Below are positions 5,428 to 23,871 of a DNA stretch of 64,000 bases, piece by piece. The stretch's first letter is position 1. Each line of letters starts with the position of its first letter. The position numbers and the translations under genes were made by a program. Under the pieces are notes generated by a model that was not told the origin of the DNA, did no database searches, and saw nothing but the letters and a program-made list of their open reading frames with translations. Origin of the DNA: an uncultured Bacteroidales bacterium (GTDB taxonomy: Bacteria > Bacteroidota > Bacteroidia > Bacteroidales > GCA-2748055). The DNA lies in NCBI GenBank assembly GCA_963771005.1, contig CAVYRO010000008.1, positions 762,102 through 826,101 on the forward strand. The letters are read 5' to 3'.

Positions 5428-5558
5428 GTGTTCTACATTCATGTTGCGCACCTACGGAGCGCTGGGACGCGCATTCATATTAAGCTATCGATATCAGCCA
5501 CCTACGGAGGCTTCCCGAACAAACTATCTGATTATTCGAACCTGAAACAACATCAAAC
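5428..5558 (+). repeat. Conserved 131-nt 'head' element, copy A (noncoding; candidate structured RNA or recombination/mobile-element end)
   Basis: Aligns to the reverse complement of 23740..23871 with 4 substitutions plus one t/ac length change. It contains two GC-clamped hairpins with the identical loop ACCTACGGA. Confidence 0.85.
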
Positions 5559-6006
5559 CATTCAAACCATTTCAAACCATCTCAAACCATTTCAAACCAT
5601 TTCAAACCATCTCAAACCATCTCAAACCATTTCAAACCATTTCAAACCATTTCAAACCATCTCAAACCATCTCAAACCATTTCAAACCATTTCAAACCAT
5701 CTCAAACCATCTCAAACCATCTCAAACCATTTCAAACCATTTCAAACCATTTCAAACCATTCAAACCATCTCTCAAACCATTTCAAACCATCTCAAACCA
5801 TTTCAAACCATCTCAAACCATTTCAAACCATTTCAAACCATTCAAACCATTTCAAACCATCTCAAACCATTCAAACCATTTCAAACCATCTCAAACCATT
5901 CAAACCATCAAACCATTTCAAACCATTTCAAACCATTTCAAACCATTTCAAACCATCTCAAACCATTTCAAACAATCCTCAAACAATCCTCAAACCATCT
6001 GAAACC
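5546..6006 (+). repeat. 10-bp tandem array A, about 46 units (ttcaaaccat / ctcaaaccat)
   Basis: The direct tandem decamers are visible as column-aligned text in the sequence. There are occasional 7-9-nt units, and the last units change to caaacaatcct. Confidence 0.95.
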
Positions 6007-6010
6007 TATT

Positions 6011-8797
6011 CTAAAATTTCCTTTTAGACACTTCATACTCCATTTCCTGATATCCGATTTCGCCTTTGTCTGAAATTGCTTCGATTACAACTTCCATTTT
6101 TCCCGTATAGTCAGCATTGTAAAATGAAGTGGAAGCCTTGCCCAAATTGTCGACCCTAAGTTTAGGCTCCCAGTGCACCAGGGCACGTAAATCCGGTTTA
6201 AACCAGTCTTCCGTCTTAAGATTTGGGTACTTCGGTTCATAAAATTCACGGGATGCAGAGAACACCGGAACAGCGGTTTTCAGGATACCTATGGTACGTA
6301 TAACCCCGGAAAGCCCTTTTCCTGCATACGTATATATTGCAATAACATTCCCTGTTTTTGAACCCGGCTCAAGCAACCAATTCATATAATTTTCAGGAAG
6401 TACTTTACTATAAAGCTCTCTAAAATTTTTGGCATTCTCAATTACTTCGAAACTTTTGACTTCACCGGGTGGGATGTTTGGAATGAGCGGGTAGTCATCA
6501 AACATAACCGGGATCCCGTCAATCACAATAAAGGTAGGGTCGGGATTATTCGCCCAGGCGTATAAAGTACCATCCGAATCTCTTATTATTCTCACTTTGT
6601 CAGGGAAATTGAATAAAAGGACGCTGTATAAGCCATACGACCATTTTTCTTCTCTTGCCTGAATGGTTTCTCCCTCGATAACTTCATCCGGCTTGCCGTA
6701 CTCATCAGCCATTTTCTTTCTTGCAGGGGTCATATTGTAACCCTGAACCGTTACTTCATCCAAAAAAATAGTCCCTTTTGATAAGGGAAAGGCTTCATCC
6801 ACCTTTTTACGTTCAATGTTCTTTTCAACAAAGGCATCGACCACACTGTCGGGTTTTTCTATTGAATTGACATGGTTAAAAGAAATCGCCGGTGATTCTT
6901 TTTTATCCAGTGTGATGGTACATTCTTTTTTCTTACCGGCCTTATTCGTACTCTGGATCATAATGTTCACGTTCTGTCCGTATTCATCATTCACATCAAA
7001 ACTAAACCTGCCCAGGCTGTCCACCTTTTCCACCTGAACCGAATGGTTATGCCCAAAAGTCATCAGGGTTAACTCTATATCATTTTTCCGCTTTTCCCGG
7101 TTAATTGCCTCCTTCACTGTTCCTGTGACGGTAAGCATGGCCTCAGGTGGGTACCTGATCCTATCCCTCGGATGGGTGTAATTGTACTTTCGCCAACCCT
7201 GGGTAAGTAACAGAGCGTCCAGGTCGCTGAAACGGTCTTCATCCTGAGCGAAATAATACCCGGGATTTTCAATATCCCCTTTTAAATCGGAATTCACCAG
7301 GAAATACGACAATATGTGTTGGCGTGTATCCTGCATTTCTCCCATTTGTGCTTTGTTCAGCACAAGCACCGATACGTTGGCGTTTACCGGATTTCCCGCT
7401 TTATCCGTGGTTTCAATAGCAAGTTTGGTCGGCTCGCGCTGTTCGTAAATATCCTTGTCGGATGAAATTGCAATATTGATCCGGCTTTCCGGCCTCTCAT
7501 TAAAATAGAGCCTCTCTGCAACGGGTTCCATTTGTTTGTTCATCATGGTAAAGGCAATGATGCCTTCCGGCAGCGAATTTGAGGGCAGCAAAAACGCCAG
7601 GTTACCTCTGTCTGGGTGGCCTTTTATGCTGTAGTAAGCAACTCCCCGGCAGGAGGCCCAAATCGTTATGCTGTCATTTTGCTGGTCGTTCGAAGAAGCC
7701 TTCACACTTATCCTGTTCCCGTCCTTTCTAACAGACAATACATTTCCTTTGAGAGCAACCTTGGGCAGAGGATACATTTTTGAAATCCCTTTTTCCGGAA
7801 CAGGCATAAGCCTCGCTGAGTAAATTGCATTGGGATCCGCATCGGTTATCGTAAAAGTTCCCATACCCAATTCATTGCTCTTGAACAAGGTGATCACCTC
7901 ACCTCTCCCGTTGACGATTTCACCTTCCACTTTCCTCCCCTTACCGCTGTAGTCCAACGCTTTGAAGCCGACCACACTTTGTAATCCCTGAACCAGTTCC
8001 CCGCTTTCAGGGAAAAATTGCAAATCGAGGTAATCTTTATCCAGTACGATCGTTTTGGAAAAACTCAAATGGTTTTTTGTCTCCATTTGAAGTGTGACAA
8101 ACCGGCAGGTATCCGGCAGAGCATAATTTAGCAGGTATTGATCCTCCTTGTTTTTCATTATGGCGATCGTATCTCTCCTGTCCTCGAAAGACAATATCAG
8201 AGTCAGGGCCTTTTTGTGAAGGCTGTCGATCGCAAAAGGGTTTAGCGTTGCCTCAAGACGGCGTTCCTGGCTCGGCTCCCTGACCAGCGTAACATTTGCT
8301 ATCGGGGTTGGTTTTGGATAGGTCGTAGATGCAAATACCCGGATATACTCCTTATAGAAAAAGTCGTTCCCGAAATTTTTATCCCATTGCGTATAAGCCC
8401 TGACCAGGTAAGTTCCTTCGATATAATTTGGTTGTAGCTGAAAAAAACCGTCTCCAATTCCCTTTTCAAGCTTGACTATTTTTTTTTCAACGATGCTTTC
8501 ATCGGGACCGATCAATTCCACATAAAGTACACCGCTTAATCCAGTGGGGACATGGTCGGCAGCACCGGCAACAATTGCCTTGAACCAGATGCTTTCATCC
8601 GTAGTGTAGGCCTTGCTGTCCAGTTGCAGGTAGATTTTCTCGGCCAAAGAAGCATTCGGGAACAGGTGGGAGGGCTGTGCCAAACACGGTATTGTCAGGA
8701 TAACAGGCAGGATCAATACTAAGAACTGCTTTCTTCGAAGGCGATATTTCGGATGAATGGTTTTCATTCCCGATTTTATACAGGTTCCGGGTCCCAT
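6011..8797 (-). CDS. Large exported protein, function unknown; macroglobulin(MG2)-like N-terminal region and a TonB-plug-like segment
   Basis: 928-aa intact ORF. The start is more likely the ATG at 8767 (MKTIHPKYRLRRKQFLVLILPVILTIPCLAQ signal peptide). The domain guesses come from residue patterns only, e.g. LDEVTVQGYN...FIVIDGIPV. Confidence 0.6.
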   Translation of the reverse strand: MGPGTCIKSGMKTIHPKYRLRRKQFLVLILPVILTIPCLAQPSHLFPNASLAEKIYLQLDSKAYTTDESIWFKAIVAGAADHVPTGLSGVLYVELIGPDESIVEKKIVKLEKGIGDGFFQLQPNYIEGTYLVRAYTQWDKNFGNDFFYKEYIRVFASTTYPKPTPIANVTLVREPSQERRLEATLNPFAIDSLHKKALTLILSFEDRRDTIAIMKNKEDQYLLNYALPDTCRFVTLQMETKNHLSFSKTIVLDKDYLDLQFFPESGELVQGLQSVVGFKALDYSGKGRKVEGEIVNGRGEVITLFKSNELGMGTFTITDADPNAIYSARLMPVPEKGISKMYPLPKVALKGNVLSVRKDGNRISVKASSNDQQNDSITIWASCRGVAYYSIKGHPDRGNLAFLLPSNSLPEGIIAFTMMNKQMEPVAERLYFNERPESRINIAISSDKDIYEQREPTKLAIETTDKAGNPVNANVSVLVLNKAQMGEMQDTRQHILSYFLVNSDLKGDIENPGYYFAQDEDRFSDLDALLLTQGWRKYNYTHPRDRIRYPPEAMLTVTGTVKEAINREKRKNDIELTLMTFGHNHSVQVEKVDSLGRFSFDVNDEYGQNVNIMIQSTNKAGKKKECTITLDKKESPAISFNHVNSIEKPDSVVDAFVEKNIERKKVDEAFPLSKGTIFLDEVTVQGYNMTPARKKMADEYGKPDEVIEGETIQAREEKWSYGLYSVLLFNFPDKVRIIRDSDGTLYAWANNPDPTFIVIDGIPVMFDDYPLIPNIPPGEVKSFEVIENAKNFRELYSKVLPENYMNWLLEPGSKTGNVIAIYTYAGKGLSGVIRTIGILKTAVPVFSASREFYEPKYPNLKTEDWFKPDLRALVHWEPKLRVDNLGKASTSFYNADYTGKMEVVIEAISDKGEIGYQEMEYEVSKRKF

Positions 8798-9230
8798 AAT
8801 TTTTAGGATTGATGATCTTTACCTGTTAATTTCTATAATCCTCAGTTTGCATTCTTCGCAGAGCTATCCCCTAAACGTCGGGAGCTTGGGAAGGCCTATA
8901 TACATATTACTGGGTATTCCAATTTAATCATCGTTTCTGATAAAATTTGCCAGATTAAAATAAAAATTTTAAAATTTCCGTCACAGGCCGCAAATTCCCT
9001 GGCCTGTGCCTTTATGTGATGGGGCTTCAGCCCAAAGAGATTCACCGGCGTTCATAGTCTCCATCCCTGTATTTACCTCCTCAAAAACTTGAATCTACTA
9101 CTTTCTACGCTCTACCTGATTGATGATATCTGCAAAAAATCAATCCCATCAATCTTCCATCAAACATCCTCACCTCTCCTCTTATCATTCAAAAATTAAA
9201 AGCCGCCATTTTCAATTAAAAAAAATATAG

Positions 9231-9238
9231 TACTTTTG
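9231..9238 (+). promoter_or_regulatory. Candidate -7 box (TACTTTTG = TAnnTTTG) for tRNA-Ser
   Basis: The motif ends 5 nt before the first tRNA base. The -33 position has only TTTC, so support is partial. Confidence 0.35.
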
Positions 9239-9243
9239 CGCCC

Positions 9244-9330
9244 GGAGGAATGGCAGAGTGGTCGAATGCGGCGGTCTTGAAAACCGTTGTCCGCTTGCGC
9301 GGACCGGGGGTTCGAATCCCTCTTCCTCCG
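9244..9330 (+). tRNA. tRNA-Ser (anticodon UGA), class II with long variable arm
   Basis: Hand-folded cloverleaf. Acceptor GGAGGAA/UUCCUCC, D stem GCA/UGC, anticodon stem GCGGU/ACCGU with loop CUUGAAA. Variable arm GUCCGC-UUGC-GCGGAC, T arm GGGGG-UUCGAAU-CCCUC. CCA is not encoded. Confidence 0.95.
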
Positions 9331-9356
9331 CTTGATTAGTTCGCAGTATTTTGCAA

Positions 9357-9390
9357 AAGCCTGAAATCAGTCTGATTTTCAGGCTTTTTG
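9357..9390 (+). terminator. Rho-independent terminator after tRNA-Ser
   Basis: gcctgaaatcag / ctgattttcaggc stem followed by TTTTT. Confidence 0.7.
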
Positions 9391-9735
9391 CACTTCCAAT
9401 AAACCATATTCTTTATATCTCACTAATGGAATATTATTCATGAATAGTCCTGTATATATCCCGCTTCAACAACCCCTTATTTATTATATTACTAAGGATC
9501 AATATCTTACATAATTCCTGATAATTTATTAATGGAACTCAAATGACTATCCATGGTTCAATGCTGGTTAAGAAAGACAGATGAATTGACGACATTTTCA
9601 AGAGTCATCAATTGGTTTGTAATTTAAGGTCTGGAGGTGAGAATAAAATAAATCCCTGCACCATTGTACAAGAGGTAAAAAAATTCCACAGAAACTCGGA
9701 GTTCAAAAGTAAGTGCATCTTTTCAGCAAATTTTT

Positions 9736-9813
9736 TGTATTGCAATACATATTTTTATCGAATTTTTTGTATTGCAATACATAATTTCGCCGGATTTATT
9801 GTATTGCATTACA
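9736..9813. promoter_or_regulatory. Three copies of the 14-bp palindrome TGTATTGCAATACA at exact 32-bp spacing (operator- or iteron-like array)
   Basis: Perfect palindromes lie at 9736..9749 and 9768..9781. A one-mismatch copy (TGTATTGCATTACA) lies at 9800..9813. Each is embedded in a ~32-bp AT-rich direct repeat unit. Confidence 0.5.
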
Positions 9814-10164
9814 ACTTTTTCGGATCTTTTCTGAGAAGGCATCGCATTTTTCAGGATCTTCGTCAGGCCCGAACTGATAATTGATGACTGTCAGAACGAT
9901 CTCATTTCATTACCGGAGAGTGGTAATCATTCTTCTTTTGATCTATTTTCCGGCGTATTCTGAAGAAATTTTATCTTACTTTTTTTTCCCCATATACCAT
10001 ATCAGTCTCGTTTTTTCGAAAAATTTCATATCTTCATATTTCGAAAAAGTTTAGTTTACGGTGGAAGCAGAGATAAACTGCCAACGGAGTCATCGCAAGC
10101 TGCCTCGTAAATGACCCTGTGTAGCCTGAAAATACAGGGAATCTGGTAACCGTTTATACTGCCT

Positions 10165-11617
10165 ATGAGACACTTCGTCCTGCCCATGCTGTGTATGGTC
10201 TGCATCACTGTTTCCGGACAGGCCCAGGATCATCATGATTACAACCGGGAATTTTCCGAAGTCGTAAAAACATATAATGCATTCGCCTTGAAGCCTCTCA
10301 AGGCCGGATTCTGCGACTCTTCAAAGTTCAAATCCGATCTGATCCATGCGCTGGATCCCGGGCAGGTGATCTTCAGTGCATCCGATATCCTGAAGATCAG
10401 GAAGACAGATCCCCTCACCTTTCTGGACCCATCAGGTTCGTACAACCTGGAAAGAGGGAACCTTGTCAATATATATACAAGGAGCCTGGAGAGCTCTTTA
10501 GAGATCCTCTGTGAACTGGATACACTAAAGCCCAGTCTCCTGAAAGCCGATTCCACCCTGAATCCTTACACCTGGGATGAGGACTATTATTCCAGGGATA
10601 AAAAGGAGAGATGGCAGGCGCTGCTCAAATATAAATTACTCAATAATCTTTATGATAAGACAAGAAGAGATTCAACCGGGCTTACTGCCGATATTCCCGA
10701 CAGTTCCCTGATGAATGTTCTTTACATGATCACCCGGACCGAAAAGAAAACGCTGATGGATATTCTCAAGAGCAAACAGGGACCGGAACGAAAGGTTTTC
10801 GATGCTTACGCGAACAGTATGTTGTTGCAGGCCGATCCGCACAGCTCCTATTTTTCACAGGAAAGTTTCACGGATTTCAGGGATCACCTGTCTTCACAGT
10901 CGATGTCATACGGCATAAAGCTTGAACAGAAACCGGATGGCAGGTTTGTGATCGCGTCCATTCTTCCCGGCAGTTATGCCTGGAAAAAAGGACAAATCCG
11001 GGTTGGCGACGTTATCACGAAACTCGGCATCCCGGGATCCCAATCGATGGAGCTGGATTTCGCAGAGTACAGGGACATCAGCGATTATATCGGAAACCCG
11101 GAACCTTCGGAACTGACGCTGACGATCCTTGATGGATCGGGAAACCCCAAAGAAATTACATTTCCCCGGGAAGAGAATGCTGAAAGAGAGAATTCGGTGA
11201 GAGCCTATGTTCTGAATGGCCCCAAACGGGTGGGATATATTGTCCTGCCGGCATTTTGAAGAGCTTAAAAAACGATCCGCAGAAAGGGTGGATACCTGCA
11301 GAAAATTCAGGGAGATCAGCCGGATTGACAGTATCGGCATCGGTTATCTGAAGAAATATACCTTCATTCCGCTTCAACTTGAAAAATTCAAAGCCGGCAA
11401 AGATGAGCAGGAAATGCTCATCAATGAGATCAATGCCCTTGCATCGGACAGCACCAGGAATTTTACGGTCGAGAACATCAGGGCGGACCAGCGCATGATC
11501 AGGATGAGTGAATATCACGCAGACTTCCTGAGACAAGAATCCGGATCCCTTCTATCCGATCCTTATCTAGAGGAAACCTGGTTCATTCTTACGGATTACC
11601 TCGAATTAAATAAATGA
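10165..11617 (+). pseudogene. Decayed tail-specific (C-terminal processing, S41, Prc/Tsp-like) peptidase lacking the catalytic domain
   Basis: ORF 10165..11259 has the Prc-like N-domain and PDZ: DPHSSYFSQESFTDF...GIKLEQKPDGRFVIASILPGSYAWKKG...RVGYIVLPAF. It then stops. The C-terminal tail (DPYLEETWFILTDYL) continues in another frame (11216..11617). No DLRxNGGGS or catalytic Lys motif is present in any frame. Confidence 0.6.
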
Positions 11618-12678
11618 TCAAAACCATGAATACATGTAAAGATTTTATGCTCATTATCCTGCCTCTGGTCCTTATCAATGCATCACCATCAGCGCTTGAA
11701 GGACAGAGTCCCGCCGAAGCCGTTGCATATATGAATGTCATCGACGGTCAATACCAAAACATCCGCAATGATACCTGGGATTATACCAGTACCATGGCGC
11801 ACAGCCGGAGTGCAAGGAAAGTCGAAAAAAAACGGGCCGATCTAATGAAGACCATTCAAAAGTCCATCCAGGTGGTCAGGCACCTGCCTGCATTCAACAA
11901 TGATATTTCACTCCGGGATTCGACCCTTGCATACCTGAAGATGAATTTCTATATCCTGAACAACGATTTTGCAAAGATCATCGATATGGAGGAGGTGGCC
12001 GAACAATCATACGACCTGATGGAAGCTTATCTCCTGGCTCAGCAGAAGGCAGGTGAAAAACTGCAGGCTGCATCGTCCGTCATCGATGAGCAGTATAAGT
12101 CATTTGCCGGCAGGTACGGGGTGAACCTGATCGAAAGTCACGACCATGTTACACAAAACCTCGAAAAAGCAAATGAAGCGCTTACCTATTACAATAAGAT
12201 TTATCTCATCTTCTTTAAAGCCTACAAGCAGGAAGCATACCTGATCGAAGCCATGAATAAAAAGGAAGTCAGCGCCATAGAACAGAACCGGAATGCATTG
12301 TCGGTATTTTCAGATGAGGGTCTTCAGAAACTGGACAGTATTCCAAATTTTAAAGCGGATAATTCGCTTCATACGACATGCAGTAAGATGCTGACCTTTT
12401 ATAAGGAAGAAGCTGATCAGAAAATCCCGGTTATCTCCGATTTTATGCTAACTGCCGCCGGTTATGATAAGATGGTTGCACTATTCAACGCGAAAGACAA
12501 AGAGCTTTTAACCCAGGATGAGGTGAACGAATATAATAATACGTTAAAAGAATTCAAGAATGGAATAAGTCAATTTAACAGTACAAACAATTACCTGAAT
12601 TCGAGGCGAAGTAGTTATACCACGAGCTGGAATAATTGCGTAAACTCATTTATGGCGAGGCATATACCTCAAAAATAA
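11614..12678 (+). CDS. Exported alpha-helical protein of unknown function (354 aa)
   Basis: Intact ORF whose ATG overlaps the preceding stop (ATGA). Hydrophobic N-terminus. No family motif recognised. Confidence 0.6.
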   Translation: MIKTMNTCKDFMLIILPLVLINASPSALEGQSPAEAVAYMNVIDGQYQNIRNDTWDYTSTMAHSRSARKVEKKRADLMKTIQKSIQVVRHLPAFNNDISLRDSTLAYLKMNFYILNNDFAKIIDMEEVAEQSYDLMEAYLLAQQKAGEKLQAASSVIDEQYKSFAGRYGVNLIESHDHVTQNLEKANEALTYYNKIYLIFFKAYKQEAYLIEAMNKKEVSAIEQNRNALSVFSDEGLQKLDSIPNFKADNSLHTTCSKMLTFYKEEADQKIPVISDFMLTAAGYDKMVALFNAKDKELLTQDEVNEYNNTLKEFKNGISQFNSTNNYLNSRRSSYTTSWNNCVNSFMARHIPQK

Positions 12679-14700: not shown

Positions 14701-14864
14701 GAAAGAGAAAGAGGAAGAGGAACACGGATGATACGGATCTATACGGATTTACACGGATTTATAAGTATCGCGCAAGAGGAATACGGATGATTCGGGTTTT
14801 CGCAGATTTGTTAAGCGATAAATCAACAAATCAACAAATCAACAAATCAACAAATCAACAAATA
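14701..14864. repeat. Intergenic short-word repeats (aagaggaacacggat, acggat words, atcaacaa x5)
   Basis: gaaagaggaagaggaacacggatgatacggatctatacggatttacacggattt ... aaatcaacaaatcaacaaatcaacaaatcaacaaatcaacaaat. It starts immediately after the stop of 13117..14700. Confidence 0.9.
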
Positions 14865-14871
14865 AAAAAGG

Positions 14872-16845
14872 TCAGGGAATAATCACCTTCATCGTTTGGC
14901 TTTGGTTCCAGCTTACGATATAAAATCCCGGGTGTAAATTGCAAACAACAAGGGAATCGTCATGCAGGAATCCCTGGTAACATTCTCTTCCCCATATATC
15001 ATAAACCGAGACCAGTGTATCGGGTTTTCCGGAAATATGGAGGTTTCCATCCAAGGCAAATACACGGATGGCAGATGCTTCAACCCGGGGAATGGATAGA
15101 TTATTGCAGTTCTCGGTGAATGAAAAAGAAGCAGGTACCGGATTGGTGTCGGAAGATGCACCGATATTTTCATATTGAATTTTACACCAGGTGCCCTCCC
15201 CTTTCGGATTGGAGAAGTAGATGCCGTATCGCCCCGTCCCGTCAATTTTAATATCCCTGAGTGCGAGCTTATTTATATGATGCGTTGTGCTGCCGATGAA
15301 GACGGCATCGTGCTTCGAGTTGTAAAAATCAATATGGTGTATGTATATGTTTTGCAGGTCATATTGAGAACTGCTGTTTATGTGCAATGCCCCCTGAGCA
15401 TTCCCCCAAAGATCCCCGTCTACACCGACGGGACCGGCGGATACCCCGCCTTTATAAACGGAAATTTCATAAAACTCACTGTAACCGTCCTCGCTGAATG
15501 GCATTCCGGGGAAATCGCAGGTGACGCGGAACCCGGCTTCCATGGGATCTTTGATAACAATATTGTACGCTTTATTCTGCTTACCGCCGAAAAAACCCAG
15601 TCCCGAAGCACGCCAGTTATTTTCACTGGTACAGTAACGGAAGATGTTATTCTCGCACAATCGGTCGGCCCGCGACCAGGACGCCATATCGTCGTCTCCG
15701 TTATTCCGGAAGCTGCAATGTTCCACAACTGAATTCTTGCACCCGTAAGCCAGGTTCATCCCGTCAGCATAGTTATTGCGGAAACGGCAATGCTGAATAT
15801 TCAGGTTTCCCGAACCTTCAATCCAGCCGCCACATTCGAAATGTTCTATCCACAGATTACGGATTCCGGAATTGGATCCAAAACTGCCCATAAGGCCTTT
15901 GCCTACCTGGTAAACCGGGTCATTATTGTAATACCGTTTATTATTCAGGGTATTGAGGTACAATCCTTCCAGTGCCACATCGTTGCTGTAAGTTTCAATT
16001 CCCCGGTTGTTATAGGTACTTTTCTCATCTGAAGATGCAGAGAAATAGATTTCAGTGTACCACATTCCTGCTCCGATGATCCTGGTACCGTTTCCGTTTA
16101 TGGTAATGCGGCTGACAACATCATACCTGCCTTCAGGAATGTAAATGGTTTTACCGGCGTTTTGTGAGATAAACTGCTGTAAATTTCCTTTGTCAACCGA
16201 ATACGAAATCTTGTTTTCATCCGTGATCTCCTCAAAGGTTACCATTTCGGGTACCTCTTCCAGTTCCACGAAATCAATAGTATAGGGGACATCATTCTCA
16301 TCCGTTTTCTCCAGACGAAAAATAGCATCTGCCGGTATTTTCTCCTCCAGTTTCAGATGGATTTCATCGAAACGCATCCTGGGAAACTTTGTTACATCAG
16401 GAGTATTGTCGGGATATTTACTTCCTGATCTAAGAATATATTGCCAGGCCCAATAGGAGTTCAGTATAATAGTATCAGCCGGATTATCATTGATATATAA
16501 TACCAGGCTGCCTGTTAGCCCTTTTCCTTCCGTATCATCGGGTATTGAAAAGCGGATCGTCAGCCCGTCTGCCACTTCGTCATTTGTCCATTGAACCCAT
16601 GCTCCTTTTGCTATCAGTTGAACAGCAACCTGGTCTGAGGCCTCGGATTGTAATTCACGCTGATCGAAGGTTTGCGATAAGAAGTTGCCGTTAGTTTCAC
16701 AATACCCCGGCCCGGCTTCATATCTGAGATAGGGATGATCAAAATATCCCCGTTGAATTTCATCATCCATAAAGGGAACATGCTGGGCATTCAGGTTTGT
16801 AAGAAGCAAAAACATTCCGCTAACAAGGAGACTTTTTTTATTCAT
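14872..16845 (-). CDS. Right-handed beta-helix glycoside hydrolase with N-terminal CBM-like domain and T9SS C-terminal sorting domain; GH87-like (alpha-1,3-glucanase/mycodextranase-like) is a guess
   Basis: The track ORF begins at a TTG (16920). The ATG at 16845 gives the signal peptide MNKKSLLVSGMFLLLTNLNAQ. Beta-helix repeats include NNGDDDMASW. The N-terminus RYEAGPGY...EASDQVAVQL...LTIRFSIPD resembles CBM6/35-like modules. The C-terminus VSVYDIWGRE...LHPGFYIVSW...MKVIIP is T9SS-CTD-like. Confidence 0.7.
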   Translation of the reverse strand: MNKKSLLVSGMFLLLTNLNAQHVPFMDDEIQRGYFDHPYLRYEAGPGYCETNGNFLSQTFDQRELQSEASDQVAVQLIAKGAWVQWTNDEVADGLTIRFSIPDDTEGKGLTGSLVLYINDNPADTIILNSYWAWQYILRSGSKYPDNTPDVTKFPRMRFDEIHLKLEEKIPADAIFRLEKTDENDVPYTIDFVELEEVPEMVTFEEITDENKISYSVDKGNLQQFISQNAGKTIYIPEGRYDVVSRITINGNGTRIIGAGMWYTEIYFSASSDEKSTYNNRGIETYSNDVALEGLYLNTLNNKRYYNNDPVYQVGKGLMGSFGSNSGIRNLWIEHFECGGWIEGSGNLNIQHCRFRNNYADGMNLAYGCKNSVVEHCSFRNNGDDDMASWSRADRLCENNIFRYCTSENNWRASGLGFFGGKQNKAYNIVIKDPMEAGFRVTCDFPGMPFSEDGYSEFYEISVYKGGVSAGPVGVDGDLWGNAQGALHINSSSQYDLQNIYIHHIDFYNSKHDAVFIGSTTHHINKLALRDIKIDGTGRYGIYFSNPKGEGTWCKIQYENIGASSDTNPVPASFSFTENCNNLSIPRVEASAIRVFALDGNLHISGKPDTLVSVYDIWGRECYQGFLHDDSLVVCNLHPGFYIVSWNQSQTMKVIIP

Positions 16846-17120
16846 AACCGGGAAATTTTCGTAATTCAGAAAACCGAAATTACGAATAGATCTGAAAATT
16901 TCTAAATGCCTGCTTTTCAAACTATGGCTTTACCTCCTTCCCAGGGGTATTTTGGTTGAATTTACCTCTTTTAAATCTATATTTTTCCGCCTCTGATTAA
17001 AACTATAATGTTGATTCACTGTTATTTATACAACAAGCACATCTATATTATCCTTAAAATTTACTTTTTGCTGTCTTAAACTCCCTATTTTTATGCTATT
17101 CATTCACTAAATGTAAACTT

Positions 17121-17945
17121 ATGAAAAAATTTACTTTGATTGCCGCATTATTATTAATGATCGCGGTGATTTCAAAATCACAAACACTTAATAATCCAAA
17201 AGACGCCGATGGCTACTACATTGTTAAGTGGGACTGTTCTACCGATTCTTTTGCAGCTTCAAATGACATTGAAGCAGATGAAACTTTCACATTTGCCGTT
17301 GATGTCACCGGAACTCCCTTTGAAGACTGGTTAAAAGAAACCCCTACTGCCGCGGGTGCAACACGAGCCCTGGCTATTAACAAGTGGACAAATTTTGGCG
17401 ATGTGAGCGGTGGAACCAACCGTTTGAAGCAAATAAAAGAGAATATTTATGGCGCTACCTGGAATATTATTCAGATGGCCTCGACCATGAATGTTGAATC
17501 GGCCACCGGAACTGACTCCGTAGTTTATATCTACGGTCAGGTTTTCGGTTTTGAATATACAGCGGATAATCCGGGCGCAGGATGGTGGATGTGGCCTGAA
17601 GGGGTTGCGGAAGGTACGGCCATCGATCCCGGTACTGGTGCTATATTTAAAACTCTAGCCTATACAGGTACCAAAACCAGCCCTGAGATCTGGAGTGATG
17701 ATGTTGAAGGGGGCTTGTTCTTCTCCAATAATACACCGGAGAAAGGATATGGTCTGCCATGCGCATTATCTACAGGTGTTTCCAAAGTTTTCAGGAGTGA
17801 AGCTGAAATCGTTGGTCATGAATACTATAATGTACTGGGAGTAAGGCTGCCGATAGCACCAAAGAAAGGTTTTTATATTCACCGGATATTGAGATCTGAC
17901 GGCACCTCAGAGGTAGTCAAAGAGTTCAAACTCATTGATCAGTAA
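17121..17945 (+). CDS. Secreted protein of unknown function with probable T9SS C-terminal sorting domain
   Basis: 274 aa. Signal peptide MKKFTLIAALLLMIAVISKSQ. The C-terminus YYNVLGVRLPIAPKKGFYIHRILRSDGTSEVVKEFKL resembles type-A T9SS CTDs. Confidence 0.6.
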   Translation: MKKFTLIAALLLMIAVISKSQTLNNPKDADGYYIVKWDCSTDSFAASNDIEADETFTFAVDVTGTPFEDWLKETPTAAGATRALAINKWTNFGDVSGGTNRLKQIKENIYGATWNIIQMASTMNVESATGTDSVVYIYGQVFGFEYTADNPGAGWWMWPEGVAEGTAIDPGTGAIFKTLAYTGTKTSPEIWSDDVEGGLFFSNNTPEKGYGLPCALSTGVSKVFRSEAEIVGHEYYNVLGVRLPIAPKKGFYIHRILRSDGTSEVVKEFKLIDQ

Positions 17946-17962
17946 GCATTGCCTGTTACAGG

Positions 17963-17998
17963 AAAGCGAGGTATACCGGCTTCGCTTTTCTTTTCCTC
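17963..17998 (+). terminator. Candidate terminator between 17121..17945 and susC-like gene
   Basis: aaagcga / tcgcttt stem (17963..17969, 17982..17988) followed by the T-rich tcttttcctcttc. Confidence 0.4.
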
Positions 17999-18033
17999 TT
18001 CAAACCGTTTAGATCGCTTTACAACCTATTTTC

Positions 18034-21000
18034 ATGAAAAACCTGAAGTTATTCATATTCATTTCTGGTTTGGTCTTATATTTTCTTCCGGGTGCGGTCG
18101 TAAATGCCCAGCCAAACAAAACCATTACAGGCAAAGTTACTGACACCAACAATGAAGTCATCATCGGTGCAACGATTTCGGCAACAGTTTCGGATAAAAT
18201 GGTTGGTGGCACTATATCGAATACCAGCGGGGAGTTTGAAATTTCAGTTCCCGAAGGAAGTATCCTGAAGGTCTCTTTTATAGGATACAAGCCTTATCAG
18301 GAAAAGGTGACAGAAGAAAAAGATGTATATAATGTAGTATTGGAAGAGGATGTAAAGTCTCTGGATGAAGTGGTAGTGGTTGGGTACGGAACTCAGAAAA
18401 GATCCGAATTAACAGGATCCATTTCATCGGTAAGTGCGGAAGATATACAGGATTTTTCATCCAACAGCCTTGCCGAATCACTAAGTGGTATGGCTGCAGG
18501 GGTCATGGTAACGAAAAGCGAGGGAACTCCCGGAAGTGAAGCGGACATCATTATTCGCGGTGCAGGTTCTCTCAATGGCATGGCTCCCTTATATGTTGTT
18601 GACGGGGTTCCTCAGGATGCCGGATTTAATTTTAACATGCGGGATGTTGAGTCCGTCGAGATTCTGAAAGATGCCGGGTCTGCAGCCATTTATGGTTCAC
18701 GCGCCGCAGGCGGAGTGATCCTTATCACAACAAGGCGGGGCAAAGAGGGAAGCAAACCTGCGATAAACCTTAATGCCCGTTCCGGCTTCCGCAATATTTA
18801 TACGGATATTAAACTATTGAACACCAAAGAATGGATACGTGCCAGGGATGCATTTGGCACAGGAAGCACGCTGGATGTTCTTGGTGCAAAAAATGTTGAT
18901 GATCTGCCCAATACCGACTGGATGGATGTAATGTTCGGAACCGGAATTGAACAGGAGTATAACCTTTCTGTCGCATCCGGCAATGAGAAAACCAACTTCT
19001 TTCTTTCAGCAGGTTATATGGGTGAAAAAGGCGTTTACCTGGATACACGCGCCGATCGTTTTTCTTTTCGAAACAATATCGATCATAAATTTAATGACCA
19101 TATTACCCTGGGTGAATCGATATATGGCAGCGCCGTGAAAACCAATCCGGCAACAACTTCTTCCATCTACAATCATACCATTCCTTTTCGTACCGTCCCG
19201 GTCTCCCCCGTCTATGATGAGAATGGAAATTATGCAAAGACAAATGACAAGGCGGGTAGCGGACCGAACTTCGCCGGACTGGAAGATGCATTCCATGTCT
19301 TCAACGATAATAACTATAACTTAAGTACCCAGGCATACCTTGCCATTAATTTCTTCGAGGGATTGGGCCTGAAGATTACCGGAGCCGGGGAATTCACAGG
19401 TTTCTCAAAAAATGATTTTACAGAATTCCGTGATTTCGGTCCTGTCCAGATAAGCCCCCAACATCTTAATTCCTATGCGGGTACCATGCAAAACCTGATG
19501 TTTAATTCTGTACTTACGTATAGCAAACAAATTAGTGATCATAATTTCAGGATAATGGCCGGTACCGAATTCTGGAAACTTGACGGATACAACCTGAATG
19601 TTACTTCATACGATTTCTCCATTCCGGTTGCTCAATCCATAGCTTTAGCTTCGGCCGGTCCCACCAAAGATGCTTATGATAATTTACCTGTTGAGCGCCG
19701 GGGATCTTATTTCGGACGGTTTAACTATAATTACCAGGGAAAATACCTGGTAACTGCTAATTTCCGTGCAGATGCTTCCGACCGTTTTGTAGGAAGCAAT
19801 CGCTGGGGTTACTTCCCTTCAATAAACGGCGGATGGCGTATCAGTAAAGAAAACTTTGTTCAGGCATTTACGAAAAACTGGCTGAATGATGCCAAAATAC
19901 GTGCCAGCTGGGGGATACTGGGTAACGACGTCAGCGTTCCGCAATTTATGTACCAGTCAACCTGGTCAGGAACCGGGATCAGTCATTCATTTGATGGGAC
20001 CTCCACGCAGCAAGCCGGTTACTGGCTGGCCGTTTTTGGAAATGAAAATTTAAAATGGGAAGAAATCACTCAGGTCGATCTGGGTTTGGATTTAAGCTTT
20101 TTCAGAAACCGGTTGACATTCTCGTATGATTATTATAACCGGCAGACAAGAGATATGCTTTATCGTGGCGATCTTCCTTTATCGTCAGGAATGAGTTACT
20201 ATTTCAGCAGTGATGACCCCGCTAACACAGTACCGGTATATTTCAATGCGGGACTGGTAGAAAATCTCGGACATGAATTCACGGTTGGCTGGAAAAACAA
20301 AAAACGCGACTTCTTTTACAGCATAACTACCAACGTATCCTTCAACTCGAACCTGGTTAAACAGGTCGGGGATGAACCGGGTGCAACACCCATCGATGAG
20401 GGGCTGAACAATGCCTGGAATTTGATCACACGTACACAGGACGGTTATCCCATGAGCATGTTTTATGGTTATGAAGTTATTGGCATATTCCGGAACCAGG
20501 AACAGGTTGATCAATATAATCAGGCAGCCCTGAATGCCTGGCGGGCGGATAATCCCGATCATACCAGTTTTGATCCGGAAACCGGTCAGCCGTTGAACCT
20601 GGATGGCCAGCCCATAGGAATTTATTATCAGAAAAAGCAAACAGGAATAGGAGATTTAATATTTGACGACAACGGGGAAGGAAGAGTCACCCCGCTTTCT
20701 CGCAAGTTCATCGGTAACCCGTGGCCTAAGATGTTCCTGGGCCTCAATATAAACCTGGAATATAAAAGGTTTGATCTAAGTGCGGTTTTCCAGGGAGCAT
20801 TCGGTTTCGATATTATGAACCTGGTAAAACCCTATACACAGATGTTTAGTTCCGACAATACTACAGCAGATATTTTCAAAACATCCGGATTTGGTGTCGG
20901 CAATGATAAAGTTACCGCTTATCCCCGCGTAGGATACGTGGATGAGAACGGTTCATTTATTGGCGACGGGGCAGCCAATAAAAACTATTCGACCGTGTCG

Positions 21001-21258
21001 GGGTATATGGTGGAAAAAGGGGATTACCTCAAATTAAAAAACCTGTCACTGGGCTATAACCTGCCTGACAAGTTAGGTCAGAAAGCAGGAATGAACAAAG
21101 CGCGCTTATATGTCAGTATTCAAAATGCTTTCACCCTGACAGGATATTCGGGCATAGATCCGGAAATTGGTGGCGGGGTGCTTATGCGGGGAATTGACCA
21201 TCAAAATCGCTACCTGCCCTCACGTTTGATCTCATTTGGGATCGACCTTACTTTTTGA
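18034..21258 (+). CDS. SusC/RagA-family TonB-dependent outer-membrane transporter (PUL 1)
   Basis: 1074 aa. CarboxypepD_reg-like ITGKVTD..., plug LDEVVVVGYGTQKRSELTGSISSV, and the terminal beta-strand ...SFGIDLTF. Confidence 0.95.
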   Translation: MKNLKLFIFISGLVLYFLPGAVVNAQPNKTITGKVTDTNNEVIIGATISATVSDKMVGGTISNTSGEFEISVPEGSILKVSFIGYKPYQEKVTEEKDVYNVVLEEDVKSLDEVVVVGYGTQKRSELTGSISSVSAEDIQDFSSNSLAESLSGMAAGVMVTKSEGTPGSEADIIIRGAGSLNGMAPLYVVDGVPQDAGFNFNMRDVESVEILKDAGSAAIYGSRAAGGVILITTRRGKEGSKPAINLNARSGFRNIYTDIKLLNTKEWIRARDAFGTGSTLDVLGAKNVDDLPNTDWMDVMFGTGIEQEYNLSVASGNEKTNFFLSAGYMGEKGVYLDTRADRFSFRNNIDHKFNDHITLGESIYGSAVKTNPATTSSIYNHTIPFRTVPVSPVYDENGNYAKTNDKAGSGPNFAGLEDAFHVFNDNNYNLSTQAYLAINFFEGLGLKITGAGEFTGFSKNDFTEFRDFGPVQISPQHLNSYAGTMQNLMFNSVLTYSKQISDHNFRIMAGTEFWKLDGYNLNVTSYDFSIPVAQSIALASAGPTKDAYDNLPVERRGSYFGRFNYNYQGKYLVTANFRADASDRFVGSNRWGYFPSINGGWRISKENFVQAFTKNWLNDAKIRASWGILGNDVSVPQFMYQSTWSGTGISHSFDGTSTQQAGYWLAVFGNENLKWEEITQVDLGLDLSFFRNRLTFSYDYYNRQTRDMLYRGDLPLSSGMSYYFSSDDPANTVPVYFNAGLVENLGHEFTVGWKNKKRDFFYSITTNVSFNSNLVKQVGDEPGATPIDEGLNNAWNLITRTQDGYPMSMFYGYEVIGIFRNQEQVDQYNQAALNAWRADNPDHTSFDPETGQPLNLDGQPIGIYYQKKQTGIGDLIFDDNGEGRVTPLSRKFIGNPWPKMFLGLNINLEYKRFDLSAVFQGAFGFDIMNLVKPYTQMFSSDNTTADIFKTSGFGVGNDKVTAYPRVGYVDENGSFIGDGAANKNYSTVSGYMVEKGDYLKLKNLSLGYNLPDKLGQKAGMNKARLYVSIQNAFTLTGYSGIDPEIGGGVLMRGIDHQNRYLPSRLISFGIDLTF

Positions 21259-21264
21259 CAAAGT

Positions 21265-21343
21265 AAAGGCGAAAGGAGAAAGGCGAAAGGCGAAAGGGCC
21301 CTCGGAGAGGCAAGGAGAAAGGAGAAAGGCGAAAGGCGAAAGT
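21265..21343. repeat. Hexamer/heptamer word repeat (gaaagg / cgaaagg) in two ~33-bp direct halves
   Basis: aaaggcgaaaggagaaaggcgaaaggcgaaaggg ... caaggagaaaggagaaaggcgaaaggcgaaagtgg. It lies in the susC-susD intergenic spacer. Confidence 0.9.
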
Positions 21344-21442
21344 GGAGGAATAGGACCAGGGGGGTGATGAACGGAGCTGGAGAGAATAAACAAATAAACA
21401 TATCTGAAAAGCGAAACTTTATTAGATGACAAAGTAAGCAAT

Positions 21443-23299
21443 ATGAAAAAGGCCATATATATTATCCTGATAATGTCATTTGCGGGTTGCAAGGATTTCT
21501 ATGAAATTTCGAACCCGCAGACCCTGTCGACCGATAATTTTCCGGCTACGATTGATCAGGTAGATCTGGTCCTGACTTCGAGTTATGCAGGCCCCTACGG
21601 AATCGGACTTTATTCGTTTTACTGGTTTCCCATGGGGATCTATTTGTTTGATCATACCACCAATACCTATGGATCCTACGACGAACGTGGCACCCAGATG
21701 GATAATTACACGGACCTCAACAGCCGGTATACCACGCAGATGTATGTTGATATTTGCAAATGGGCAAATTTGTCGACCACAGCCATTGAGGCAATAGATC
21801 ACTACGAGGAAACGAATGCAAAAACAGAGGAAATGGAGCAACTCGGTTATATGCGGGGCCAGGCTCTTTTCAACCGTGCCCTTGCCTACTGGCATGCACA
21901 GCTGTTTTTCGAAATTGATCCTGAGGGTCTGGGTTTCCCTATCTTCGATGTGGTGGCAACCGACCTGGAGGGTATGAAAAGGAAACGAGCTACGGTAACA
22001 GACACATGGGATTTTGTCATAAATGACCTCGAGACAGCCATCCCTCTCTTAACCGGCCATCATGACAAATACCGCGCCTCTGAATGGGCGGCTAAAGGCT
22101 TACTGGCAAAAGTATATATGCAGTCGCTTTCTATTTTTCCGGAAAACAAGAATAAGGCTGCAGACCTCCTGGAGGATATCATTAATAACAGCGGTAAACA
22201 GTTGGTCTCCCCTGAAATTTACCAGGATATGTTTTACGGAAATGTACTGAATGAATTCAATTCTGAATCCCTGTATGAACTCAGCATGACTACGAACTGG
22301 AATCAGAACGGTCCATGGGCGGGTTATACAACCGGCAGTGGAATGCCCATGGTAATGGCTCCCTGGTATATGGATCTGACGATCCGTTTCAGGCCGGGTA
22401 TAGAAGGAGCCGTCGATCCTTTGACCCGGGAGCTGGATGTGATCACTTCGAAAAAGAGCAGCGAGTGGGGAAATAATTTCATTCATGATGCCAATATAAA
22501 ACGTTTTGGGTTCGAGGGAATTGATGGCGATACCGTACCCAGAAGGACGCTGAATCCTGATTATAACCCCTCTTTACCCCGTTCTGCAGATAATTATCCG
22601 TACAGGACACAGGATCCCGATTACCGTGAAAAGAGCCTCAACCTGAAAAATAACAAAGACCTCGTGGATCCGCGTTTAATGCTTTGTGCAGGCCAGCCGT
22701 ATGTGGATGAATATATCGACGACAAAGGCAATAGAACATATTACGACAGGTCGCTGGAAGTAAACAACCGCCCCGATCTTATAACCTGGCAACACCGTAA
22801 ATTCACGAATATTCGCGGTGTTGAAACCGGACCTGCTCCTTATGGGAAAAACGAAAGCAGCGATGCGAATTATCCGGTAATCCGGCTTGCAGATATTTAT
22901 CTTCTCTATGCTGAACTGATAAAGGATGATAATCCTTCCCTGGCATTGGAATATATAAATAAAGTCCATAGAAGGGCGTATGGGTATTCACCGGATTCGC
23001 CCAGCCCATACGATTATGCCAGCCTGAACGATCGCACCAAAACTGCCGGGGAGAATGATCATCTTGCGAACGATGTTCTTAAGTATGAACGCTGGGCAGA
23101 GCTGTTTGCAGAAGGACAGTGGTGGTGGGATGTAAGAAGATGGAAGATAGGCCCGGCAGAGGCAGATTTTTATGTTGAAACCAGGCATGGAGACATAACC
23201 TGGAAAGGCGATGAATCTTATGTCCAGCCTATTCCGCAACTGGAGCTGGAAAGAAATGAAAATATTCAGCAATCCAGGGGATATCCGGGGGTTAGGTAG
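21443..23299 (+). CDS. SusD/RagB-family nutrient-binding outer-membrane lipoprotein (PUL 1)
   Basis: 618 aa. Lipoprotein signal ILIMSFAGCKD. TPR-like SusD pattern (RALAYWHAQLFF, RLADIYLLYAE, RWAELFAEGQWWWDVRRW). Positioned directly after the susC-like gene. Confidence 0.9.
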   Translation: MKKAIYIILIMSFAGCKDFYEISNPQTLSTDNFPATIDQVDLVLTSSYAGPYGIGLYSFYWFPMGIYLFDHTTNTYGSYDERGTQMDNYTDLNSRYTTQMYVDICKWANLSTTAIEAIDHYEETNAKTEEMEQLGYMRGQALFNRALAYWHAQLFFEIDPEGLGFPIFDVVATDLEGMKRKRATVTDTWDFVINDLETAIPLLTGHHDKYRASEWAAKGLLAKVYMQSLSIFPENKNKAADLLEDIINNSGKQLVSPEIYQDMFYGNVLNEFNSESLYELSMTTNWNQNGPWAGYTTGSGMPMVMAPWYMDLTIRFRPGIEGAVDPLTRELDVITSKKSSEWGNNFIHDANIKRFGFEGIDGDTVPRRTLNPDYNPSLPRSADNYPYRTQDPDYREKSLNLKNNKDLVDPRLMLCAGQPYVDEYIDDKGNRTYYDRSLEVNNRPDLITWQHRKFTNIRGVETGPAPYGKNESSDANYPVIRLADIYLLYAELIKDDNPSLALEYINKVHRRAYGYSPDSPSPYDYASLNDRTKTAGENDHLANDVLKYERWAELFAEGQWWWDVRRWKIGPAEADFYVETRHGDITWKGDESYVQPIPQLELERNENIQQSRGYPGVR

Positions 23300-23320
23300 G
23301 AGATTTGGAGGACGGTTTTG

Positions 23321-23402
23321 TTTAAGGATTGTTTGAGGTTGTTTGAAATGGTTTGAAATGGTTTGAAATGGTTTTTAAGAGGAACACGGATTTGACGGAT
23401 TT
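23321..23402. repeat. Mini decamer array (gtttgaaatg x3 plus variants) followed by the 26-mer aagaggaacacggatttgacggattt
   Basis: The units are the reverse complement of the array-A unit. The 26-mer at 23377..23402 is identical to 5296..5321. Confidence 0.9.
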
Positions 23403-23404
23403 AG

Positions 23405-23430
23405 ACGGATTCCGATGGCTATCGGAACGG
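23405..23430 (+). repeat. 26-bp direct repeat, left copy (acggattccgatggctatcgGaacgg)
   Basis: Matches 23870..23895 at 25 of 26 positions. The two copies bracket array B plus head B. Confidence 0.9.
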
Positions 23431-23750
23431 GTTTAATGGTTTGAAATGGTTTGAAATGGTTTGAAATGGTTTGAGAAGGTTTGATGTTGTTTGATGTTGT
23501 TTGATGTTGTTTGATGTTGTTTGATGTTGTTTGATGTTGTTTGATGTTGTTTGATATTGTTTGATATTGTTTGATATTGTTTGATGTTGTTTGATGTTGT
23601 TTGATGTTGTTTGATGTATGTTTGATGTTGTTTGATGTTGTTTGATGTTGTTTGATGTTGTTTGATGTTGTTTGATGTTGTTTGATATTGTTTGATATTG
23701 TTTGATGTTGTTTGATGTTATTTGATGTTGTTTGATGTTGTTTGATGTTG
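23431..23750 (-). repeat. 10-bp tandem array B, about 32 units (plus strand gtttgatgtt / gtttgatatt; first units gtttgaaatg)
   Basis: The column-aligned decamers are visible in the text. One 11-nt unit near 23611 shifts the register. Confidence 0.95.
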
Positions 23751-23871
23751 TTTCAGGTTCGAATGTATCAGATGGTTTGTTCGGGAAGCCTCCGTAGGTG
23801 GCTGATATCGATAGCCAAATATGAATGCGCGTCCCGGCGCTCCGTAGGTGCGCAACATGAATGTAGAACAC
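23740..23871 (-). repeat. Conserved 132-nt 'head' element, copy B (inverted relative to copy A)
   Basis: The reverse complement aligns base-for-base with 5428..5558 (see copy A). Confidence 0.85.

Follow-up and report, generated by a model that had tools for sequence, protein, structure and literature searches.

The 64-kb window analysed here, by which we mean the whole stretch of 64,000 nucleotides from an uncultured Bacteroidales bacterium (contig CAVYRO010000008.1), contains two nearly identical segments, head A and head B, which lie in inverted orientation at the two ends of an 18-kb segment and lead, each on its own strand, into a long array of decamers. These heads are probably (with a probability of roughly 0.6) solo copies of a non-autonomous two-hairpin module with a satellite tail, which is similar to the repetitive extragenic palindromic (REP) sequences of other bacteria and whose family is tied to a resident IS200-like Y1 enzyme. 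Judged by sequence comparison, the heads are members of a widespread family that occupies more than 100 intergenic places in assemblies of Bacteroidota and Ignavibacteria. On this reading we are dealing with a repeat that is selfish or semi-domesticated; it would represent neither a novel type of gene nor a switch that acts on the 18-kb segment. An earlier note, which was made from the sequence alone, had stated that no element with this architecture was described; this no longer stands, as the head belongs to a REP-like family with a link to IS200-like Y1 enzymes and the arrays represent a known class of repeats. Among the readings offered there, that of a non-autonomous mobile element comes closest to the evidence.

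Head A (5428..5558, + strand) consists of an 18-nt leader, a first hairpin, a spacer with the motif GCTATC, a second hairpin and a 45-nt tail ending in AACATCAAAC, and head B (23740..23871, − strand; 132 nt) is its paralogue. Pairwise alignment confirmed that the two are collinear end to end (5428..5558 on the + strand with 23871..23740 on the − strand) and 96% identical, with four substitutions (T/C, AA/TG, T/C) and one T->AC replacement between identical blocks of 35, 18, 41, 7 and 25 nt. The additional claim that the surrounding DNA is unrelated is mostly correct, but not entirely, because decamer-like units and GAACACGGAT, the reverse complement of the 5' junction of head B, are common to both 5' flanks; the distal ends of the arrays are homologous beyond the heads as well (CAAACAAYCCTCAAACAATCCTYAAAC). 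The 35-mer of the head occurs exactly twice in the window, with no occurrence expected from shuffled sequences, and a covariance model built from modules found in metagenomes, when run over every position of the window, recovered the two heads only (head A: 5440..5527, + strand, 62.3 bits, E 5e-15; head B: 23859..23772, − strand, 61.9 bits), the next-best score being 9.7 bits.

Each head contains CACCTACGGAG twice, 50 nt apart, and each time it forms the centre of a hairpin. In the centroid fold of head A, hairpin 1 (5446..5462, + strand) reads GCGC-A-CC-TAC-GG-A-GCGC, with six base pairs, one A·A mismatch and a TAC loop, and hairpin 2 (5496..5512, + strand), AGCC-A-CC-TAC-GG-A-GGCT, combines the core of hairpin 1 with another, compensating outer stem. 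The corresponding hairpins of head B, both on the − strand, are found at 23837..23853 (CACCTACGGAG at 23840..23850) and at 23787..23803 (CACCTACGGAG at 23790..23800). The outer stems of hairpins 1 and 2 thus differ yet stay complementary, around an invariant core with the A·A mismatch and the TAC loop, and every head carries two 17-nt imperfect palindromes with the compensating stem variation that characterizes REP sequences.

The covariation analysis proposed in the earlier note was carried out on the hairpins of the family and revealed compensating changes far in excess of those in shuffled alignments. In a set of 80 modules, for which the search pattern had fixed hairpin 1 and left hairpin 2 free, hairpin 2 showed 69 cells changed on both sides compared with 29.9+-4.5 in shuffles (0/500), and 90.9% of its pairs were standard, compared with 26-51% when the partner was slid by 1-3 columns. 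For the outer stem of hairpin 1, analyzed in 61 hairpins of this type collected by a search that fixed the 11-nt core alone, the values were 52 cells and 29.4+-3.7 (0/500). In both cases G·T wobbles outnumbered A·C mismatches (30 to 11 for hairpin 2, 20 to 6 for the outer stem of hairpin 1), which indicates that folding was selected on the strand bearing CCTACGG, either as single-stranded DNA or as RNA. A likeness of GGTGCGCA to the XerC arm of dif was dropped since the outer stem varies between family members.

The heads do not encode proteins. Open reading frames (ORFs) over both heads start at the GTG of the head (MFYIHVAHL...), and these had been regarded as artefacts in the earlier note, with conservation acting at the level of DNA or RNA; the protein-family search and the sequence comparisons bear this out. 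Pfam yielded no significant match for the ORF at 5428..6027 (low-complexity matches alone, with no significant stretch) and none at all for 23419..23871, the changes between the two copies read as codons comprise one synonymous and three non-synonymous substitutions and one frameshift, and spacer lengths vary out of frame across the module family. The spurious ORFs of 199 aa and 150 aa in the window illustrate how such modules and arrays can mislead gene prediction.

The distribution of the module was investigated with two scans. In the first, which covered one genome per species and required two CACCTACGGAG cores 34-44 nt apart, 48 loci were recovered, about 28 of which are noncoding and belong to Bacteroidota or Ignavibacteria (Chitinophagaceae, Bacteroidales, Rikenellaceae, Prevotellaceae, Mucilaginibacter, Chryseolinea, Marivirga and others); they show the same hairpins with varied outer stems, arranged as tandem units of 25 or 50-62 nt or as inverted clusters. 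Matches in Firmicutes proved to be coding Thr-Pro-Thr-Glu repeats and were disregarded. In one Bacteroidales metagenome-assembled genome (MAG) the strict pattern matched at least 7 sites, and a mosaic of ~350 nt with 1-4 tandem units is found on at least 6 contigs of a Bacteroidales MAG, resembling the bacterial interspersed mosaic elements (BIMEs) of enterobacteria. The second scan, of metagenomes with the hairpin-1 19-mer of the window, returned 110 loci, nearly all of which possess a second hairpin whose loop lies 59-63 nt downstream and which is preceded by GCTACCAAC; these second hairpins are built as GGCCTC-TAC-GAGGCC, GGCTCC-TAC-GGAGCC, TGCCCC-TAC-GGGGCA and the like. In an alignment with 78 modules of other genomes, both heads of the window match column for column. 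The module is ~75-90 nt long and comprises hairpin 1, a GCTAYC motif and hairpin 2, with ~34 nt between the hairpins and the core C-A-CC-TAC-GG-A-G.

The modules are located almost exclusively between genes (100 of 105 non-redundant modules). Genes could be called on either side of 48 modules: the neighbours are convergent for 17 of them, tandem for 27 (15 + 12, by orientation) and divergent for no more than 4, so that there is a bias towards gene 3' ends without strand preference, which is the pattern of REP sequences. Outside the Bacteroidota, the CACCTACGGAG core was seen in tandem arrays of 14-18 nt or in long hairpins (L008, L015, L021, L024, L031, L040, L045), with a Proteobacteria MAG, a Spirochaetaceae MAG, Dictyobacter kobayashii, a Myxococcales MAG and Bordetella genomosp. 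7 among the hosts. A further observation concerns a small gene for a four-helix bundle (23S_rRNA_IVP / bAvd-like), which in a Prevotellaceae MAG (L036, 6500..6800) is the neighbour of a hairpin module and of heptamer arrays and which is present in locus L163 (5326..5673) but absent from the otherwise syntenic locus L162; this suggests a small insertable gene travelling with the repeats.

The connection to a transposase emerged when all ORFs within 1.5 kb of modules were clustered into families. The largest family of neighbours is a protein of ~153 aa, found at 9-10 independent loci with 38-62% identity, which matches Y1_Tnp (PF01797; E 1e-22 to 1e-27) and exceeds the cut-off of the NCBIfam IS200 model (NF033573; 62-71 bits, cut-off 55), so that the module-adjoining genes of other genomes qualify as IS200-family TnpA. 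The protein carries the motifs DHIH, WQ and Y---Q--HH, which are those of Y1 subclass 1.2 (Quentin et al. 2018, PMC6006769), a group described as mostly confined to Cyanobacteria and Bacteroidetes, of low copy number and without typical IS200 ends (PMC6006769). Runs of hairpins occur within tens of nucleotides on both sides of the Y1 genes, and the exact hairpin-1 19-mer of the window is located directly beside Y1 genes in loci L087, L126 and L064. A profile of five of these Y1 proteins retrieved at least 8000 homologues, often named 'REP element-mobilizing transposase RayT' by JGI and 'IS200/IS605 family transposase' by NCBI, many of them on contigs shorter than 2 kb; modules and arrays of this kind break short-read assemblies.

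In a reciprocal test, four Y1 homologues were picked blind to repeats (from Flavobacterium branchiophilum, Hydrotalea sandarakina and two MAGs). All four are preceded by 1-5 hairpins on the reverse strand and followed by a two-hairpin module on the forward strand (CGCTCCTACGGAGCT ... GCTACAAACAGTA-AACCTCTACGAGGTT). The covariance model, for which these loci lay outside the training set, matched both sides of every gene (minus strand upstream, plus strand downstream; E 1e-4 to 1e-8) and gave no match on 34 kb of control loci, and the flanking modules were inverted in 7/7 reciprocal-test loci. A Y1 gene bracketed by inverted repeats, the arrangement of a REPtron, is thus present in other genomes (L162-L169, L087, L010 and others) and not in the window. 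In two Flavobacterium-level relatives (L162/L163 and L168, 3001..3462) the gene occupies the same fadB-[Y1]-thiolase position in a beta-oxidation cluster, with Y1 88% and FadB 86% identical between them, so that gene and neighbour have diverged at an equal pace. The Y1 gene therefore looks like a resident, apparently vertically inherited gene and not like a hopping insertion sequence (IS).

The tails of the two heads extend into satellite arrays. Array A (5553..6006, + strand; 45.7 decamers of period 10 according to Tandem Repeats Finder, TRF) is composed of CATTTCAAAC (22 units), CATCTCAAAC (13 units) and variants, and ends 5 nt short of the first stop-codon base (6011) of a convergent gene for a 928-aa protein. 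Array B (23318..23753, − strand; TRF period-10 stretch 23439..23753 with 31.4 copies) contains AACATCAAAC (18 units) and AATATCAAAC (5 units) close to the head and five copies of array A's unit CATTTCAAAC at its distal end, where TRF reports GTTTGAAATG at 23341..23374 (3.4 copies, 100% identity); as had been recognized before, GTTTGAAATG is the exact reverse complement of the commonest unit of array A. An insert of ~60 nt (about 23376..23435) with GAACACGGAT and CGATAGCCATCGGAATCCG, which is related to the sequence 5' of head A and to 14708..14730, interrupts array B, and the array ends about 20 nt from the stop codon of SusD. Both arrays finish with CAAACAAYCCTCAAACAATCCTYAAAC, and the last ten bases of the head, AACATCAAAC, are identical to the unit of array B. 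TRF and a census of units support the original description, in which each head runs into an array of decamers built on CAAAC on its own strand. Within the window, CAAAC decamer arrays follow these two heads and are found nowhere else. With 61 matches of the decamer pattern in the window compared with 0 in shuffles, with head-to-tail noncoding units within the range of 5-11 nt and with a length beyond chance, these are simple-sequence arrays; CRISPR was ruled out, as the period is too short and spacers are lacking.

The arrays are strongly biased in composition. On the head strand, G accounts for 1 of 454 nt in array A and for 9 of 436 nt in array B, where all 9 lie in the insert, and C for 29-34%. 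Short-period arrays are also present 5' of head A (5232..5368, + strand; (ATTTGGTG)6, (AGAGGA)4, CACGGATTTG repeats and (TAATCTGTGA)3 in TRF), and these are G-rich and C-poor on the head strand, that is, of opposite polarity to array A. Their 34-nt segment 5296..5329 corresponds to 23377..23410 in array B with 91% identity; the motif GAGGAACACGGAT is seen in these two segments, inverted relative to the head in array B, and in 14708..14730. Counted in other genomes, 24 of 32 arrays situated no more than 250 nt from a module are on its hairpin-2 side (p = 0.007; 21 vs 5 loci), and among these 24 there are 18 with less G than C on the module strand and 11 with at most 2% G. The succession of a module and a G-poor short-period array therefore recurs outside the source genome; candidate causes of this regularity are slippage combined with selection against structure beside single-stranded hairpins, the loading of Rho onto outgoing transcripts, and a by-product of the Y1 reaction.

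Short-period arrays are, in addition, frequent in the intergenic DNA of the window (5232-5368, 14731-14863, 21265-21342 and 62555-62588 in TRF; (ATACGGATTT)3, (AAATCAAC)5.5, (AAAGGCG)11 and (CATCCTGAA)4 were recorded) and common in related loci. A different array of hairpins at gene 3' ends, unrelated in sequence to the heads, consists of 10.9 head-to-tail copies of the 29-bp unit GGAATCGTAAAGACGGGTTGCGACCTGTT without spacers (47191..47507) and lies between the convergent genes 46109..47140 (+ strand) and 47535..49157 (− strand); its last unit contains the perfect palindrome ACAGGTCGCGACCTGT, its first unit a near-perfect version of it, ACAGGTCGTGACCTGT, and the inner units degenerate versions.

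These observations can be combined into a model for the origin of the two elements. Hairpins on one strand of single-stranded DNA would be what the Y1 enzyme recognises; by cutting and rejoining next to them, it would copy or move modules in trans. A head carrying a short array may have been copied as one piece; because the copies share the proximal unit and the distal end, head and array were presumably duplicated as one unit. The two copies would have landed behind the stop codons of two genes pointing toward each other, and the arrays, probably slippage expansions seeded from the last decamer of the head, AACATCAAAC, would have expanded different units after the duplication, turning over much faster than the 96% identical heads. 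In this model, mobilisation by the enzyme and the slippage origin of the arrays are inferred, as any regulatory role would be.

Several points weigh against this interpretation. Only two copies of the head are present in the 64 kb, and both are antisense to their neighbouring genes; no Y1 gene was detected in the window by tblastn; and leader and tail of the head are specific to this lineage. The handling of modules by the Y1 enzyme is an analogy, if a likely one, with IS200/IS605 TnpA and with tyrosine transposases of the REP-associated kind (RAYTs) and their REP substrates. The class of the enzyme, however, is not that of RAYTs, which belong to class 2 (Y---NP), whereas the module enzyme is of class 1, subclass 1.2 (Y---Q--HH); the NCBIfam RAYT model NF047646 accordingly scores 23-41 bits with a cut-off of 80, and subclass 1.2 was recorded with 'no' REP (PMC6006769). 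REP sequences are further defined by a GT[AG]G tetranucleotide 0-2 nt 5' of the hairpin foot (Quentin 2018, PMC6006769; Di Nocera 2013). In the module, GTAG/CTAC instead forms the loop and its closing pairs (CTCC-GTAG-GTG on the complementary strand), and the bases at the foot vary (GCGC, AGCC, TCG...). The module is thus REP-like in the way it works, yet it is not a canonical GTAG-REP/RAYT system, as both the position of GTAG and the class of the enzyme differ. Finally, slippage leaves the G-free composition and the one-sidedness of the arrays unaccounted for, and the co-occurrence of arrays and modules is weakly enriched (27/133 vs 29/235 segments, odds ratio 1.8, p = 0.049) and confounded by length, module-bearing intergenic segments being twice as long as module-free ones.

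Four other explanations have to be weighed against a solo REP-like module. An element acting at the RNA level, either a stabiliser or terminator in the 3' untranslated region, as proposed for REP sequences, or a small autonomous RNA whose structured head is joined to a repetitive tail, seems unlikely to us. The covariation of the hairpins and the one-strand tolerance of G·U pairs would suit RNA as well as single-stranded DNA, and the preference for gene 3' ends (17 convergent vs 4 divergent contexts) points in the same direction, as does the slight surplus of modules oriented like the upstream gene (45 vs 30). Tandem contexts, however, are equal in orientation (15 vs 12), the heads are antisense to both neighbours in the window, so that the selected strand is not part of their mRNAs, and the tight bracketing of a transposase gene is not expected of an RNA gene. 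Nor was a described RNA family found: Rfam 15 at the gathering score identified tRNA-Ser alone in the whole window and nothing in region 5150..6050 even at E <= 10, and 18 related loci yielded one tRNA and nothing else. The whole head folds no better than shuffles on either strand (z = +0.4 to -0.9), although the centroid fold still picks out the two small hairpins, a pattern scan revealed no Bacteroidetes-type promoter on the head strand, and a sigma-70 and terminator scan around head A remained at chance level. The autonomous noncoding transcription unit envisaged in the earlier note is thus not supported. The scan did identify a canonical Bacteroidetes promoter for the neighbouring gene hup, TTTG-N19-TATATTTG (5028..5058, − strand); as it lies between hup and head A, the head is not the hup promoter.

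Alternatively, the elements could be polar transcription insulators, in which the C-rich, G-free arrays serve as loading sites for Rho, blocking antisense read-in, for which they would be retained, and leaving the C-free sense transcript unaffected. The scarcity of G and the 29-34% C of both arrays, the opposite polarity of the arrays 5' of head A, and the prevalence of arrays with less G than C on the hairpin-2 side in other genomes would all be in line with this idea, and in 12 of the 18 cases that could be called the array is followed by the 3' end of a convergent gene, a split that is based on crude ORF calls and not significant. Yet the case is purely compositional, 450 nt is far above what a Rho loading site needs, and 12% of the intergenic segments without a module have short-period arrays as well; we consider this function quite improbable.

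Even less probable is that non-functional intergenic DNA was duplicated just once, without any mobility system being involved. Such an event would be compatible with the two copies in 64 kb and with the absence of leader, tail and CAAAC arrays from all 161 fetched loci and of any match to the head or its units among viral contigs, phages and plasmids. At the gene for the 928-aa protein, the element is missing in relatives L159-L161 (62-69% identity); the closest homologues of this protein reach no more than 69% identity, lack synteny and have module-free spacers of 40-110 nt behind them. On the other hand, core and spacing of the head are common to more than 100 loci, whose model it matches with 62 bits, and chance duplication leaves unexplained why both copies occupy the site behind a stop codon that is typical of the family.

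The last alternative concerns the genes around the heads, whose order was described correctly in the earlier note, as confirmed by Pfam, Rfam and the ORF list: hup (4707..4979, − strand; Bac_DNA_binding), the 928-aa gene (6011..8797, − strand), tRNA-Ser (9244..9331) and a polysaccharide utilization locus (PUL) with, in order, an alpha-1,3-glucanase and a DUF6377 protein before SusC (18034..21258) and SusD (21443..23299), followed by GH97 (from 24253/24522). Each element ends 5-25 nt from a stop codon, and both heads are located between co-directional gene pairs, the 928-aa gene and hup on one side and SusD and GH97 on the other. These pairs point opposite ways, so that the inverted bracket merely mirrors gene orientation, and the placement around the 18 kb and the PUL is most likely incidental. 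Hairpin 1 faces the Y1 gene on both sides in other genomes; in the window the hairpin-1 ends face outwards, which means that the 18 kb do not constitute an oversized REPtron or composite element.

Homologous inversion of the 18-kb segment (tRNA-Ser and PUL) between two genomic isomers, one of the roles originally suggested for the heads, is very improbable: although 96% identical inverted repeats with exact blocks of 35 and 41 nt, a length within reach of RecA-type recombination, and inverted CATTTCAAAC units common to both arrays would provide a substrate, the ORFs examined in and next to the segment yielded no domain of a recombinase or invertase (three ORFs had no Pfam match), the four substitutions, the indel and the unlike array units make frequent exchange or gene conversion less credible, an inversion would swap nothing regulatory as both of its junctions are situated behind stop codons, family members elsewhere are single and in any orientation, the layout is opposite to the bracketing of the transposase, and GC skew, which tracks gene orientation and is uninformative on inversion, gave no sign of it.

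Two observations were made between head B and the end of GH97. A G+C-rich inverted repeat, CCCCCTCTCC-TGAAGAG-CGAGGGGGG (24000..24060, − strand), is located between the head and the start of GH97, and the GH97 gene itself is split over two frames, with 24253..24576 covering positions 1-69 of the GH97_N profile and 24522..26261 covering positions 66-229 together with the catalytic domain and the C-terminal domain. A frameshift near 24520-24576 is thus implied, which could reflect a pseudogene, a sequencing error or recoding.

The assignment of the heads to a REP-like family removes the puzzle of an orphan architecture in the window and places the PUL between them under no special switch. In the literature searched, we found no published description of the CC-TAC-GG two-hairpin module, of its bracketing of a subclass-1.2 Y1 gene or of the one-sided G-poor arrays; the CCTACGG motif is absent from the supplementary REP table of Quentin 2018, and literature searches with the core sequences returned primers and unrelated matches alone. 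If the association extends genome-wide, subclass 1.2 would gain a candidate substrate, the Bacteroidota would gain a REP-like system comparable to the proteobacterial one, and the origin of intergenic satellite arrays would become testable. A bolder and, in our view, doubtful extension is that of a phylum-wide undescribed REP-type system in which the subclass 1.2 partner seeds the one-sided, G-free arrays by cutting and rejoining on the hairpin-2 side. If true, this would explain mechanistically how the heptamer and decamer satellite arrays of Bacteroidota arise and might extend to Cyanobacteria, the other phylum with subclass 1.2 and such arrays.

Among known systems, the module is most readily compared with REP sequences, BIMEs and REPtrons, the latter including a RAYT (TnpA-REP), in E. 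coli, Pseudomonas and Stenotrophomonas. Like these, it consists of imperfect palindromes with compensating stems, is present in many extragenic copies that occur singly, in direct or inverted clusters or in mosaics and mostly behind gene 3' ends, and is associated with one resident Y1 HUH gene bracketed by inverted copies and with a conserved GTAG/CTAC tetranucleotide. In contrast to REP sequences, the module is a fixed pair of unlike hairpins ~50 nt apart and not one REP or an inverted REPIN doublet, and its phylum is Bacteroidota.

A second relationship is that to IS200/IS605 elements and their derivatives, palindrome-associated transposable elements (PATEs) and relatives similar to miniature inverted-repeat transposable elements (MITEs). 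The module-adjoining protein passes both NCBIfam IS200 and Pfam Y1_Tnp, the hairpins with their mismatch resemble the sub-terminal hairpins of these elements in being read on one strand, and a solo hairpin fragment without a gene looks like a non-autonomous derivative. However, left and right ends of IS200/IS605 elements have the same orientation, and a genome holds several near-identical copies of them, whereas the modules flanking the Y1 gene are inverted; the Y1 gene of the module is apparently of low copy number and its chromosomal position is kept between relatives; its hairpins form tandem runs of up to 6; and no tnpB partner gene was seen.

The arrays, finally, are comparable to the long simple-sequence or heptamer arrays, also known as short tandemly repeated repetitive (STRR) sequences, of Cyanobacteria, Beggiatoaceae and a few Bacteroidetes (MacGregor 2015, PMC4679880; Mrazek 2007 as cited there), for which a link to a Y1 enzyme or a hairpin module was not reported in PMC4679880. 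Both are intergenic, with head-to-tail units of 5-11 nt in up to tens of copies, with lineage-specific units that are absent at the same site in close relatives, and with several types of unit next to each other within a single intergenic region. What sets the arrays of the window apart from STRR sequences is their unit of 10 nt, essentially free of G on the module strand, and their start at a fixed point of a conserved hairpin module, with which they appear to have been copied.

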